IMG/VR virus record: IMGVR_UViG_2724679538_000007
Coordinates: 1-38,703 of that record
Length of the DNA stretch: 38,703 nt
Source of the DNA: a virus
Lineage: Duplodnaviria > Heunggongvirae > Uroviricota > Caudoviricetes
Strand: one strand, 5' to 3'
Part shown: positions 2,984-34,991 of the stretch, one piece after another
Layout of the letters: each line of letters starts with the position of its first letter
How positions within the stretch are numbered: the stretch's first letter is position 1
Translations under genes and position numbers: made by a program
Notes under the pieces: model-generated
The model's input: the letters and a program-made list of their open reading frames with translations, nothing else
The model's database searches: none
What the model was told of the DNA's origin: nothing

Positions 2984-3367
2984 TTAGAAGGGAATTGAAT
3001 CGTCGTATACAGGAGTGTTCTGCTGGTTACTACTTTGCTGCTGCGGGCCATTTCCTGAAGCTGCAAATCCAATCTTTGCATTCAGTAATTCAAGAGTGAT
3101 TGATTGACCATTTTGCCCCTGATAAACATCAACCCTGATGTTTTCTCCGGTAATTTCTACAATGCCACCTTCAACAAGAACACTACGGTAGTAATCCGCT
3201 TGCGCTCCCGGCTTGGCAAATACAACGGCGCTGTAGTTTGTCCATTCTTTCTTTTTTGTCTGGCGATCGTAATACTGAACGCCAGCACGGATGTTGAATC
3301 CGATATTTTCCCCGGCCTGAAACTCTCTTGCGGGCTTGTTTAGTCTTACAGTAATCGAATGTGCCAT
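2984..3367 (-). CDS. Single-stranded DNA-binding protein-like (127 aa)
   Basis: C-terminal acidic tail ...PVYDDSIPF resembles the SSB C-terminal protein-interaction motif (DDDIPF); Gln/Gly-rich linker; directly downstream of erf. Confidence 0.6.
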   Translation of the reverse strand: MAHSITVRLNKPAREFQAGENIGFNIRAGVQYYDRQTKKKEWTNYSAVVFAKPGAQADYYRSVLVEGGIVEITGENIRVDVYQGQNGQSITLELLNAKIGFAASGNGPQQQSSNQQNTPVYDDSIPF

Positions 3368-5679: not shown

Positions 5680-6042
5680 TTATTTTGTCAGGGGGATATC
5701 TCCTTCAGTTCTGACCATTCGCCTTAATACTTTCCTTAAGTCGATGTAAAGTTGAAGGTCTCCATTTGCTGCGGCATCAGCCATTTTTTGCCTGACAAGC
5801 AGTAATGTTTCATACGGCTCAATAAGAATATCGTCATGAGTAATTAGGTGAAGCGTTGCCGCATCAACTATTCCTAGAGCTGCGCCAAGTATCAAAAATT
5901 CCCTGCTATTTTTGTCGCATGAGGAGATAAGCGTATTTAGCGCATACCTAATATTCTTTATAGCTGTTGTTAATGCTGCAATTTCTTCTATGGCGTCCTC
6001 TTCAATGAGCTTTTTAAGCTCATATTTTTCTTCCTGACCCAT
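5680..6042 (-). CDS. Hypothetical protein (120 aa), first gene downstream of N
   Basis: ATG at 6042 with GAGGT RBS, 2 nt after the N stop; the track ORF (148 aa) would overlap N. Confidence 0.55.
   Translation of the reverse strand: MGQEEKYELKKLIEEDAIEEIAALTTAIKNIRYALNTLISSCDKNSREFLILGAALGIVDAATLHLITHDDILIEPYETLLLVRQKMADAAANGDLQLYIDLRKVLRRMVRTEGDIPLTK
5684..5712 (-). terminator. Hairpin plus U-rich stretch after the first gene downstream of N (tL1-like)
   Basis: Minus strand reads CCCCCT-GACAAAATA-AGGGGG followed by TGAGAGGATTTTACTATTTT. Confidence 0.4.
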
Positions 6043-6044
6043 AA

Positions 6045-6317
6045 TTACCTCGCCGTCAATTGTTTTGATTTCCGGTAGCCTGCCGCGTAAACGGCTACGT
6101 TTGGCAGGCAAATACTTCCACTGCATTCATCTGCCTTCTTGTAGCGAAGGCTTCCGAGTGATGCTGCTTTATCTGCTCTGACGCAACCAGAGAGCTTTAG
6201 CGCAATTTTTCGCGCCAGTCGCTGCTCTTGCATTGCCTGTTCACGTTGAGCCTGTCTGCGTGCTCTGCGGCGATTTCTGGCGTTATCGTCAGCCAGATAT
6301 GTAATGACTACTGTCAT
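6045..6317 (-). CDS. N-type transcription antiterminator (P22 gp24-like, 90 aa)
   Basis: N-terminal arginine-rich motif NARNRRRARRQAQREQ; C-terminus LPNVAVYAAGYRKSKQLTAR resembles P22 gp24; GGAGG RBS; nutL just upstream. Confidence 0.85.
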   Translation of the reverse strand: MTVVITYLADDNARNRRRARRQAQREQAMQEQRLARKIALKLSGCVRADKAASLGSLRYKKADECSGSICLPNVAVYAAGYRKSKQLTAR

Positions 6318-6423
6318 GTTGACCTCCGATGATTGACTTTGGCGGTGACGCGCCGGGTGCTTATCTTCCGGTTGCCGTCGTGCAGCTGCACTTCACGTCA
6401 CCCCAAAGCCAATTACTCTTTGG

Positions 6424-6466
6424 TTCCCGCATTTCGGCGGGACAATCCCATCAATGTTAAAGAGCC
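6424..6466 (-). promoter_or_regulatory. nutL (boxA GGCTCTTTAA plus boxB hairpin UCCCGC-CGAAAU-GCGGGA)
   Basis: Same boxB stem-loop sequence recurs on the plus strand downstream of cro (nutR); boxA matches the CGCTCTTTA consensus. Confidence 0.7.
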
Positions 6467-6511
6467 TGCCAATCTTTTCCGTTTGGCTTCCAGCTTCCTG
6501 CTGATGGCTAA

Positions 6512-6598
6512 AGAATACTGTAGGTATTTTATTGTGTAAATACCCAAGGTATTTATTTTTGATGAAATAATGATAAGCAAATGAATACAAAGGATATT
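6512..6598 (-). promoter_or_regulatory. PL promoter with OL operator repeats
   Basis: Three 15-bp near-palindromes, AATACTGTAGGTATT (6514-6528), AATACCCAAGGTATT (6539-6553), AATACAAAGGATATT (6584-6598); minus-strand -35 TTTACA and -10 TATTCT separated by 17 nt and overlapped by the first two sites. Confidence 0.55.
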
Positions 6599-6684
6599 TA
6601 TTTTTTCGGTGTCTGCTTGTTCAGTGCTTTTTATGCGGGATATGTGAAGTGGATCCCGATAGCTATTGCTGCCGGGATTATAGG

Positions 6685-7053
6685 TTAGTCAGCGAAGGTT
6701 AAGACGAGAATTACCTTAATGATGTCTGCTACAACAGACACGGCCATAGATAAACCAAAGACGATCCAAGCCACAGTGATGTCTTCACTACCATCGTATA
6801 GAGTTCCGTAATCACTGGTGTAAGGCGTAAATGTCGCGCCTTGATACAATAGGTATAAGCTTGATCCATAGAGGATAAATGCAGATATCCCTTGTATTGC
6901 TATGATCACCAGAATCATGAAACGAGCTGATCTATGCGCCCAAGCCTGGCTTATTTTTTCTGATAGAGATTTCGCAATAAAAGCATGCGCTAAGCCGTAA
7001 ATTGTCGAGATTGCCAACATCCCAAAAAAGCTTGCTATAGCGGTTCCAACCAT
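6685..7053 (-). CDS. Small polytopic membrane protein (122 aa) co-transcribed with cI; candidate exclusion/abortive-infection factor
   Basis: ATG 18 nt after the cI stop with AAGGGGG RBS; three hydrophobic helices predicted by eye; occupies the rexA/rexB position. Confidence 0.6.
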   Translation of the reverse strand: MVGTAIASFFGMLAISTIYGLAHAFIAKSLSEKISQAWAHRSARFMILVIIAIQGISAFILYGSSLYLLYQGATFTPYTSDYGTLYDGSEDITVAWIVFGLSMAVSVVADIIKVILVLTFAD

Positions 7054-7071
7054 AAGCGCCCCCTTGCGTGA

Positions 7072-7788
7072 TCAAACCAGTCTGAGTTTTGTCTCAATTG
7101 CAACGCCTATAATCTTGCAGTTTCCATTGATTGGCACGAGAGGCCATGCAGGATTAAGTCCCTTGAGGTATTTATTTCCGCCGTCGATTATCAGCTTCTT
7201 GAATGTTGCTTCGTTAGAGTCAGAAAGTTTTGCTATGACCAAGCTGCCGTTGATCGCCTCCCTTCCGGTATCGAAAAGAACGAATGTTCCCTCTGGAATG
7301 CTTAACCCAACCGGTGCCGTCATTGAATCACCTTCCACTTTAAGCCAGAACGCATTACCTTGAATATGCGCGTCAGACTCAAGCCAAACATCTATGTCTT
7401 TAATGGTGTATGGTTCGCATGCTTCACACCACGAGCCAGCCTGGATACTGCTTAACACCGGATACCTCTTTCCTGCTCTGTATTCCCCTGCATACCTTAC
7501 GTTGGCATCGCTCTTAAGGCTTTCTGCCTGTTCTGCAACCTTGGCAGCAATTGACTGGCTAAAATCAGCAATTGAGACTTGCAACAATCGTGCAAAACCA
7601 GATGCAACCTCAACGTTTAGCGCATTTCTGCCATTAAGATAATGCCCTACCGCTCCTTGGGTGATACCCAGTTCATCAGCGATTGAGTATTGGGTTATTC
7701 CCAATTCTTTCTTTTTTGACTCATACAAAGCCTTAAGCCGCTTAGCGTCTTCCAGCTGTTCTGTCGTCAGTGATTTTTTATTTTCCAT
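7072..7788 (-). CDS. cI: CI-type prophage repressor (HTH N-domain plus LexA/S24-like autocleavage C-domain, 238 aa)
   Basis: LTTEQLEDAKRLKALYESKKKELGITQ and FWLKVEGDSMTAP ... FKKLI ... LNP parallel lambda CI ([47 protein letters not shown]). Confidence 0.93.
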   Translation of the reverse strand: MENKKSLTTEQLEDAKRLKALYESKKKELGITQYSIADELGITQGAVGHYLNGRNALNVEVASGFARLLQVSIADFSQSIAAKVAEQAESLKSDANVRYAGEYRAGKRYPVLSSIQAGSWCEACEPYTIKDIDVWLESDAHIQGNAFWLKVEGDSMTAPVGLSIPEGTFVLFDTGREAINGSLVIAKLSDSNEATFKKLIIDGGNKYLKGLNPAWPLVPINGNCKIIGVAIETKLRLV

Positions 7789-7823
7789 AGCTTAATTCTA
7801 ATAGCTAAGGTACTTAAACTAAA

Positions 7824-7865
7824 AATACCCTAAGTATTGATTGCTTTGAATACCTGTAGTATTCT
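7824..7865 (+). promoter_or_regulatory. OR operators and PR promoter
   Basis: AATACCCTAAGTATT (7824-7838) and AATACCTGTAGTATT (7849-7863) share the OL consensus; candidate PR -35 TTGATT (7837-7842) and -10 TATTCT (7860-7865) with 17-bp spacer. Confidence 0.5.
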
Positions 7866-7894
7866 TTGTTCATGGTTAATAACGGAGAGTGCAT

Positions 7895-8089
7895 ATGATT
7901 CGAATGACACTTGCCGATTACGCCAAAATCCATGGACAGGCTAAAGCAGCCAGTGACTTTGGTGTAATCCAGTGCGCTATCAGCAAGGCCATTCTGGCAG
8001 GCCGTAACATTATGGTTACGGTAAAGCCTGATGGCAGTGTGATTGGAGAGGAAGTTCGTCCTTTCCCAAGCAACAAGAAAAACAAATAG
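7895..8089 (+). CDS. cro: Cro repressor (64 aa)
   Basis: [62 protein letters not shown] parallels lambda Cro; GGAGAG RBS; track ORF starts at an upstream GTG. Confidence 0.9.
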
Positions 8090-8095
8090 TAACAC

Positions 8096-8140
8096 CGCTC
8101 TTTAACAGTCATGGTCCTCATTCCCGCCGAAATGCGGGAA
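8096..8140 (+). promoter_or_regulatory. nutR (boxA CGCTCTTTA plus boxB hairpin TTCCCGC-CGAAAT-GCGGGAA)
   Basis: BoxB stem-loop identical in sequence to the nutL copy; located between cro and cII. Confidence 0.7.
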
Positions 8141-8197
8141 TACAACGCGCATAAGTTGATGCGCATAACTTCTTATTAGTTAAGGAAATACTTACAT

Positions 8198-8476
8198 ATG
8201 CAACTTACAAGTACTCGCAAGAAAGCGAATGCAATTACAAGCAACATCCTGAATCGAATTGCTGTACGTGGTCAGCGAAAGGTTGCCGACGCGTTAGGGA
8301 TTAATGAATCGCAAATTTCGCGATGGAAAGACAGCTTCATCCCAAAAATGGGAATGCTTCTGGCTGTTCTTGAATGGGGTGTTGAAGACGAGGAGTTGGC
8401 GGAACTGGCTAAGAAAGTAGCAAGAATGCTGACAAAAGAAAAAGCCCCGAAGAACGGCGAATTCTTCGAGGCCTGA
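8198..8476 (+). CDS. cII: CII transcriptional activator (92 aa)
   Basis: [57 protein letters not shown] parallels lambda CII ([49 protein letters not shown]). Confidence 0.9.
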
Positions 8477-8510
8477 TGTAGAAAGACTGGATCAATCCAC
8501 AGGAGTAATT

Positions 8511-33089: not shown

Positions 33090-34991
33090 ATGACAGATTC
33101 AATAAATGCCAATGTTGTAGTGAGTATGCCTTCGCAACTCTTCACTATGGCTCGTTCTTTTAAAGCCGTAGCCAATGGCAAAATTTATATCGGGAAAATT
33201 GACACTGATCCGGTAAATCCTGAAAACCGGATTCAGGTTTATGTAGAGAACGAAGACGGCTCTCACGTTCCTGTTTCTCAACCAATCATCATTAACGCTG
33301 CTGGTTATCCGGTATATAACGGACAGATTGCTAAATTCGTAACTGTGCAAGGCCATTCCATGGCTGTTTATGATGCGTATGGTGCACAGCAATTCTATTT
33401 TCCTAATGTGCTGAAGTATGACCCTGACCAGTTCAAACCTGAACTACAAGGTGCCAATGGAGCAAGCTTAATTGGTACTAATCATCGCGGCACCTTAAAG
33501 GCTGACTTAGATCGCATTGACAATAGAACGTCGGGACAGTCCATCGCAGATTTAAAGTCTAATACTGGTGATATTGTTATCGACTCCTCTGTTACGGACG
33601 CAATCACCCCAATTTCAGGCAGCGAGATATCTGGGGCGAGTAACGGGGAACATGTCACCGCTAAGGGTACTGTCGGGATTACTATAAATGATAGCAGGGT
33701 TAAGGTTGATAACTTGCTAATGCGCGGCGACGGCACTGTAGACTACACGGACACCTCACCGACATATAATGCCATTATCTATGGCTCGGACGTTGTTGTG
33801 TCCCGTTCATACGCTAAAGACACGACAATGGGGTACGACTTGGCCGCCGGTGCTTCCAACGTTAAGCTAATTGGTAATACAAGTGAAAATATGACGTCGC
33901 ACCCCGCCGTTGGTACACCACCTGTTTCAGCCGGTGGCTATGGTGTGCTTCTGGGAACTAACGAGGACGTATTAATCCTGGGCCATTCTGCTAAGGGCAC
34001 AAACCCTGCTGACCGCCACGCAGTATACCTATCAAATACGAACAACACTGACCAGAACAAAGATGTTCGGGTAATCGGCTTACGTGCGGATTACAGCGCA
34101 GGTCCATCCGCGGGGGATAAGCCGGAGCGGTCATCACCTATGATATTCGCCCGCGGCAACAACGGCGTCATTATCAGTTCTTCCCAACTCCGTGGCGGCG
34201 GAGCCGGTATAAATTTCACAGATGAGCGCGTAGGATACAGTTCAATAACCTTGAGTGATTTGCAATTACTGGATATTCGTAAGAATACCGCGGATGAGTC
34301 ATGGGGTATCGCACTCAACCACGCGTCTGCTAACGCTTCCAATGTCAACACCCAGAATATTATTAACGGCGTTAATATAGTAATGGCGCCCGGGAGCACA
34401 TCTGCCGACAGGTCGAATCAGTACCCTATACACCTTAATTCACAGCGGTATGTAAATATTGATAATGCCATCATAGCATCGTCGGGGTTGGCGTACGGAA
34501 TACGCCTGATAGCTACAAGTTACTGTAATATCAGTAATGTAGTAGGGTTTACTAACGATGGGACATCTGCCGCGGCGGCCGTGGCGTTCTTCCAGTTTCA
34601 GAACGGAAGCAGTAATATTAAATTAAGCAATATAAACGTCCAATCAAGAAATACAATGTTCGCAGGGCTGGATAATGTAACCGACTTGCAAGTGGATTGG
34701 GTGCGTAAAGTTCGCATTAACGTTGTATCTGGAGCGGCTACAGTATCAGGGGATATATGGGAACTAGTTAGCGGCGTAACCGTCACTGGGGCGAGTATAG
34801 CTGTTCAACTTAAGGGCCATGTAACACAAACCGCTGCTGATGGCGCTATCGTAAGGCCGGCTAGTGCTAATCAATTTATTGTTGCTGGCACTGACTCTAA
34901 AAGGATTACAATTTCTGTATATAACGTTAATGGCACTGGTGTTGTGCCAAACACTGGTACTTATTCGTTCGATATTGTGCTATATAAATAG
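33090..34991 (+). CDS. Tailspike protein (P22 gp9-like N-terminal head-binding domain, divergent receptor-binding domain; 633 aa)
   Basis: N-terminal about 120 aa parallel P22 tailspike (ANVVVS ... [22 protein letters not shown] ... [12 protein letters not shown] ... NVLKYDPDQ); the rest is unrelated by eye and Gly/Asn/Ser-rich, consistent with a beta-helix. Confidence 0.88.

Follow-up and report, generated by a model that had tools for sequence, protein, structure and literature searches.

Which sequences does the repressor of the lambdoid virus record IMGVR_UViG_2724679538_000007 recognise, and does its immunity region define a specificity of its own? We analysed all 38,703 bp of this record (the window), in which near-palindromic sites with the half-sites AATAC and GTATT flank the cI repressor gene, in the left and right operator regions (OL and OR, together spanning 6512-7865). 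The original prediction took five of these sites for a distinct operator family. From sequence comparison we conclude that the region is very probably the immC of a lambdoid phage of the HK620/mEpX2 type, and that the sites, as 17-mers of the form AATACY-N3-RGTATT, are in all likelihood the operators shared by CI and Cro. The operators and the promoters they overlap are as follows (features of phage HK620 were placed on the window by exact string match):

OL1, 6513-6529 (core 6514-6528): GAATACTGTAGGTATTT; exact motif, identical to HK620 OL1, overlaps the PL -10.
OL2, 6538-6554 (core 6539-6553): AAATACCCAAGGTATTT; exact motif, identical to HK620 OL2, overlaps the PL -35.
PL, 6512-6540, minus strand: TTTACA, 17-bp spacer, TATTCT; found by promoter scan, inside the annotated HK620 pL (6505-6540, identical).
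Putative PRM -10, 7795-7800, minus strand: TAGAAT, ending 6 nt before the cI ATG; placed by alignment with lambda OR (TAGATT there).
OR3, 7799-7815 (core 7800-7814): full 17-mer TAATAGCTAAGGTACTT, core AATAGCTAAGGTACT; two mismatches, identical to the annotated HK620 OR3.
OR2, 7823-7839 (core 7824-7838): AAATACCCTAAGTATTG; exact motif, HK620 OR2 with one substitution in the central spacer (7832, A for G).
OR1, 7848-7864 (core 7849-7863): GAATACCTGTAGTATTC; exact motif, identical to the annotated HK620 OR1, overlaps the PR -10.
PR, 7837-7865, plus strand: TTGATT (7837-7842), 17-bp spacer, TATTCT (7860-7865); read from the sequence, inside the annotated HK620 pR (7837-7872, identical).

A scan of the whole window with AATACNNNNNGTATT (AATAC-N5-GTATT) yields four exact matches (6514-6528, 6539-6553, 7824-7838 and 7849-7863) and none outside OL and OR, against 0.04 expected for the window; none out of 100 dinucleotide-preserving shuffles reaches four. 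A fifth site, AATACAAAGGATATT at 6584-6598, carries one mismatch. The predicted flanking of cI by near-palindromic sites with common half-sites is thus recovered as four exact copies and one with a single mismatch, and the scan finds no similar density elsewhere. By position the operators overlap the -10 and -35 hexamers of PL and PR, as had been claimed, with TATTCT as the -10 of both, and OR3 overlaps the putative PRM -10. When one mismatch is allowed, the window holds six sites (0.97 expected), and with two mismatches 16 (16.5 expected), a list that includes 7800-7814.

For a finer ranking we used a weight matrix trained on sites of related prophages only (the window was not used), from which the refined consensus AATACY-N3-RGTATT was derived. 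Among about 38,700 positions of the window the best scores are:

Rank 1, core start 7824: 24.0 bits, OR2.
Rank 2, core start 6539: 22.3 bits, OL2.
Rank 3, core start 6514: 20.7 bits, OL1.
Rank 4, core start 7849: 18.3 bits, OR1.
Rank 5, core start 33561: 16.9 bits, within the tailspike gene.
Rank 6, core start 7800: 13.1 bits, OR3.
Rank 7, core start 6584: 12.3 bits, the third OL site of the original prediction.

The site at 33561-33575 (AATACTGGTGATATT), the sixth with one mismatch, scores above OR3. It was rejected as an operator and treated as chance, given that it lies within the tailspike open reading frame (33090-34991) and that about one such site is expected. The two-mismatch sites at 6843, 6884 and 8139 were rejected as well: none is among the 25 best matrix scores, and the window total for this class equals expectation.

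The original prediction saw no convincing third OR site near the cI start. Such a site is present: the core of OR3 lies 24 bp from the OR2 site, and under a Markov null that matches the local AT-rich composition, a site of this quality occurs with P = 0.2% per 100-bp stretch and 0.01% (1e-4) at the predicted position. The cI and cro genes diverge, their ATG codons (7788 on the minus strand for cI, 7895 on the plus strand for cro) lying 106 bp apart with the three sites between them.

Comparison with known phages identifies the immunity type. Over the 2.2-kb region from 6300 to 8500 the window is 99.3% identical to mEpX2 and 98.4% identical to HK620 (megablast), and the N-terminal domain of CI is 99-100% identical to those of HK630, HK140 and mEpX2. 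HK630, HK140, HZ41, HF4s, phi296, phi367 and some Stx phages carry the same immunity region, as do 146 of 5,426 complete Escherichia coli genomes (2.7%). The GenBank record of HK620 (AF335538; Clark, Inwood, Cloutier and Dhillon, J Mol Biol 2001) annotates OL1-3, OR1-3, pL, pR, nutL, nutR and tIMM, so that four of the five predicted sites, together with OR3, are already operators in the public record. The specificity does differ from those of lambda, 434 and P22, but it cannot count as new, for it is that of the HK620/mEpX2/HK140/HK630 immunity type, known, sequenced and annotated since 2001. The gene order (N, nutL, PL/OL, hkaS, cI, OR, cro, nutR, cII) is that of HK620. Only OR2 departs among the five 17-mers listed above, at a central base outside the consensus: position 7832 is A here and G in both HK620 and mEpX2, the sole difference across the whole OR region, and it is unconstrained in the family consensus.

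Outside the immunity region the likeness to HK620 ends. The early-left genes left of N are unlike the hkaQ and hkaP of HK620, and the P22-like late region shares about 95% identity with phages Louie, APC_JM3.2 and IME10, not with HK620. The genome is a mosaic, with an immunity region as in the HK97-like siphovirus mEpX2 and virion and late genes of P22-like (Lederbergvirus) type.

Diverged relatives were scanned with one genome per species. We found 18 enterobacterial prophages (in Serratia, Pectobacterium, Yersinia, Pantoea, Siccibacter, Lonsdalea, Proteus, Tatumella, Enterobacter, Photorhabdus and Morganella) with a CI N-terminal domain 64-84% identical to that of the window. In all 18 the helix-3 region (T/S)QGAVGHYLNGRNALN is retained, and 17 carry the motif upstream of cI at the same offsets, with spacings of 24-25 and 23-24 bp; in the eighteenth (L021) the threshold is reached at OR2 only. 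The third position, that of OR3, is occupied in 15 of the 17 motif-bearing relatives, usually with one mismatch, and a second motif cluster lies downstream of cI and its accessory genes. Five Pseudomonas relatives, in which the helix reads NQGSFSHYLN, lack the motif upstream of cI. In an alignment of the cI-cro intergenic region (17 sequences, the window and 16 relatives, built without reference to the pattern) conservation is concentrated in TAATACC, AAATACc..a.gTATTG and tAATAc...t.GTATT.TT, with variable bases at the centre. Observed directly are the sites themselves, where they lie, how they are conserved and that they occur together with the recognition helix.

One relative (L020, in a record titled Chryseobacterium sp. 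18061) has the CI helix QSAVGHYLN, with Ser for Gly after Gln, and its repeated half-sites (2420-2490 and 3269-3330) are mostly AGTAC instead of AATAC. Here specificity may have shifted naturally at operator position 3. The presence of an enterobacterial-type prophage under this title suggests contamination or mislabelling.

The layout can be compared directly with lambda, for which site positions were checked in a lambda record:

OR3 centre to cI ATG: 19 bp here, 19 bp in lambda.
OR2 centre to cI ATG: 43 bp here, 42 bp in lambda.
OR1 centre to cI ATG: 68 bp here, 66 bp in lambda.

As in a lambda-type switch, we find divergent cI and cro, three OR repeats, a repressor with helix-turn-helix and S24 domains, and OL lying over PL. 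The operators are likewise 17 bp long with a central base pair, OR is tripartite, and the stretch from the cI ATG to OR3 can be aligned. The half-site is aAATACY here against TATCACC in lambda: the two agree at positions 2, 5, 6 and 7 (A, A, C, C/Y) and differ only at positions 1, 3 and 4. The recognition helices differ too, QSGVGALFN in lambda CI being QGAVGHYLN here and QSAINKAIH in lambda Cro being QCAISKAIL. Moreover, a single small gene, hkaS, stands in place of rexA and rexB, OR and OL are 1.29 kb apart (against 2.36 kb in lambda), and the candidate OL3 lies 45 bp from OL2 (against 20 bp).

No match to the lambda or P22 operator consensus within three mismatches, or to that of 434 within one, occurs in the OL and OR regions; we take these strings to be TATCACC-N3-GGTGATA (lambda), ACAA-N6-TTGT (434) and ATTTAAG-N4-CTTAAAT (P22), the lambda sites being confirmed in a lambda record. 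The predicted unlikeness to all three operator sets is upheld on these terms, and a heteroimmune specificity with respect to lambda, 434 and P22 is supported by the comparison.

The basis of this specificity can be read from the proteins. In the lambda co-crystals (1LMB, 6CRO), Gln44, Gln33, Asn55 and the N-terminal arm read A2 and G6', and Ser45 reads operator position 4. Aligned with lambda repressor, CI retains Gln44, Gln33, Asn55 and the Lys-rich N-terminal arm and has Gly for Ser45, Ala for Gly46 and His for Ala49; in Cro, Cys replaces Ser28. As judged from these alignments, the helix changes in CI and Cro match the operator change at positions 3-4, and the residues reading A2, A5 and C6 are conserved. 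For Cro, a published "evolutionary code" pairs Gln-H1, Ala-H3 and Lys-H6 with A +2, A +5 and G -6 (PMC6649833). The helix QCAISKAIL keeps Gln-H1, Ala-H3 and Lys-H6, and the half-site xAATACY has A2, A5 and C6: all three pairings are satisfied.

The remaining genes and sites of the region agree with this picture of a lambda-like switch:

N antitermination protein gene, 6045-6317, minus strand: 90 aa, Pfam N_peptide (E=8e-15); N in HK620.
nutL, 6425-6466, minus strand: boxB hairpin and boxA-like GCTCTTTAACA; exact match to HK620 nutL, boxB the same as in nutR.
hkaS, 6685-7053, minus strand: 122-aa hydrophobic open reading frame downstream of cI, PHROG 6534 (unknown function, E=2e-79); hkaS in HK620.
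cI repressor gene, 7072-7788, minus strand: 238 aa, Pfam HTH_3 and Peptidase_S24.
cro, 7895-8089, plus strand: 64 aa from the ATG at 7895, Pfam Cro PF09048 (E=4e-26).
nutR, 8096-8141, plus strand: boxA CGCTCTTTAACA and boxB TTCCCGCCGAAATGCGGGAA; exact match to HK620 nutR.
cII, 8198-8476, plus strand: 92 aa, Pfam Phage_CII (E=2e-42).

The domain matches of cI, cro and cII bear out their description as lambda-like, and N, nutL and nutR are present besides; on the left side the OL operator set overlaps PL, and nutL and the N gene come after. CI aligns over its full length with lambda repressor (3bdn, E=3e-52), with the Ala-Gly site (QAG), G(D/N)SMT and FKKLI kept, and Cro aligns with lambda Cro (1cop, E=5e-19). 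The gene hkaS, in the place that rexAB occupies in lambda, has a sub-threshold Pfam match only; it is possibly a membrane moron expressed in lysogens, or an exclusion gene. Just downstream of N lies a 148-aa open reading frame (5680-6126, minus strand) belonging to PHROG 7374 (unknown function).

From this arrangement we infer CI and Cro binding, an order of affinities, cooperativity, DNA looping and PRM activation. CI dimers at OR1 and OR2 would occlude the -10 and -35 of PR, and CI at OL1 and OL2 would do likewise at PL. At OR2, CI would abut the weak -35 of PRM and probably activate a leaderless cI mRNA; that the transcript is leaderless, as in lambda, is implied by the putative PRM -10 ending so close to the cI ATG. 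OR3, the weakest OR site by prediction, lies over the PRM -10, and high CI, or Cro, would shut PRM off there. Upon SOS induction, RecA-stimulated self-cleavage at the Ala-Gly site would inactivate CI; RecA-dependent induction is expected because the cleavage-site and catalytic motifs of CI are conserved.

The left operator is less straightforward, since the third OL site of the original prediction conflicts with the OL3 of the HK620 record. The features concerned are:

Candidate OL3, 6583-6599 (core 6584-6598): the one-mismatch copy given above, 45 bp from OL2, inside HK620 tIMM.
Annotated HK620 OL3, window 6560-6576: TGATGAAATAATGATAA, 22 bp from OL2, no recognisable half-site.
HK620 tIMM, window 6573-6603 (mapped by offset).

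As about one one-mismatch site per window is the chance level, the site at 6584-6598 is significant only through its location. There it holds up as a motif copy: with the relatives-only matrix and the Markov null, a site of its quality is seen in 0.3% of 100-bp stretches (P=0.003). The prediction is retained to this extent, as a candidate, and we consider it somewhat more likely than not that 6583-6599 is a genuine weak CI site. The annotated HK620 OL3 was rejected as a motif site, scoring -27 to -37 bits in three registers of the family matrix, and seems to have been placed by a lambda-like spacing from OL2. By motif content, 6583-6599 is the better OL3 candidate of the two, and the OL3 and tIMM features of the HK620 record are probably misplaced, the best third copy of the motif being labelled there as a terminator.

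Relatives differ in this part of OL (locus numbers are ours; the end of the locus cuts the OL region in L005 and L014):

OL spacing 45/25 bp: the window, L003 and L006.
OL spacing 21/25 bp: L004, L007, L008, L010 and L011.
OL spacing 30/25 bp: L009.
OL pairs 45-47 bp apart: L017-L019 and L021.

The spacing of the third OL site thus has at least three variants among relatives of the same repressor specificity, and that of OR is nearly invariant. Serratia (L003) and Pantoea (L006) have a degenerate site that is likewise 45 bp from OL2, and four Morganella prophages have the motif pairs 45-47 bp apart; elsewhere the third site is at 21 or 30 bp from OL2, and Photorhabdus (L015) shows two OL sites only. 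Tentatively, the third OL operator might be non-adjacent, 45 bp from OL2 and within the annotated tIMM, as part of a variant 45/25-bp OL architecture. If so, the displaced OL3 could alter the geometry of OL-OR looping, or let CI form a roadblock where the cI-hkaS transcript ends.

It might also be argued that OL has just two functional operators, or an OL3 at 6560-6576, with 6584-6598 being no CI site but an AT-rich near-palindrome that arose by chance, or a part of the cI-hkaS transcript end (tIMM). We regard this as a serious, if somewhat doubtful, alternative. The site departs from the refined consensus twice (A for Y at position 6 and A for G at position 11), a one-mismatch site of the kind expected by chance does occur in the tailspike gene, and the 45-bp gap to OL2 exceeds the 20-25 bp between adjacent lambda-type operators. 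Weighing against the displaced OL3 as well, the Serratia and Pantoea loci share homologous flanking DNA (AAAAAATAAATA... and ...ATTCATTT) that is conserved as much as the site itself; the Photorhabdus locus shows only two sites, and the HK620 depositors labelled the stretch a terminator. Set against this are the strongly negative score of the annotated OL3, the seventh rank and low local P value of 6584-6598, and the Morganella pairs. The terminator label finds little backing either: a terminator consensus scan detects no intrinsic terminator on the minus strand around tIMM, and the tIMM palindrome is not supported as one, since it forms about five A-U/G-U pairs only and is absent from the predicted minimum-energy fold.

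Nearby, a stable GC-rich hairpin (UCCCGGCAGCAAUAGCUAUCGGGA) lies at 6653-6678 on the minus strand, just past the hkaS stop and without a U-tract; the 135-nt region that contains it has a fold z-score of -2.45. This hairpin might stabilise the RNA or mark where a Rho-dependent transcript ends.

That the AATAC-N5-GTATT repeats as a whole are not operators at all, but promoter-linked AT-rich symmetry or sites for another host or phage DNA-binding protein, is very improbable: they are AT-rich and overlap promoter hexamers that constrain the sequence themselves, and the binding of CI and Cro is itself predicted from sequence, but across genera the motif follows the recognition-helix variant of CI and is gone once the helix changes, it takes the same three positions as lambda OR1-3, the same half-sites recur at OL though PL and PR differ outside them, and the half-site obeys the Cro recognition code.

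Some observations do weigh against the assignment of the repeats as CI/Cro operators. The PR hexamers match the consensus at only 8 of 12 positions and were missed by a promoter consensus scan. The training sites of the matrix were picked by their likeness to the originally predicted pattern, which introduces circularity into its core columns. Neither the recurrence of positions nor the alignment of the whole intergenic region depends on a pattern-based choice of sites. The Cro code is imperfectly obeyed across the family, because the Cro of the Proteus prophages (L012 and L016; HQTAISQALR) has Gln at H6 and still pairs with operators that keep C6. Finally, the searchable literature, which did not cover the original HK620 paper, yielded no footprint, electrophoretic mobility shift assay or genetic operator mutation for the HK620 immunity type. 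The CI/Cro operators nonetheless remain well-supported predictions.

Overall, the discovery value of the locus is small: its immunity type has been annotated since 2001 and is common in E. coli, and the architecture shows no departure from the known kind. What the analysis adds is comparative support, from 18 diverged prophages in 11 genera, for operators that had earlier been predicted only from position and repeat structure, together with a refined consensus and another natural pair of helix and half-site consistent with the Cro recognition code. The sole new point is the candidate position of OL3, at 6583-6599 in place of the annotated 6560-6576; the doubtful placement of OL3 and tIMM in the HK620 record matters for models of OL-OR looping and for the engineering of imm-HK620 switches.

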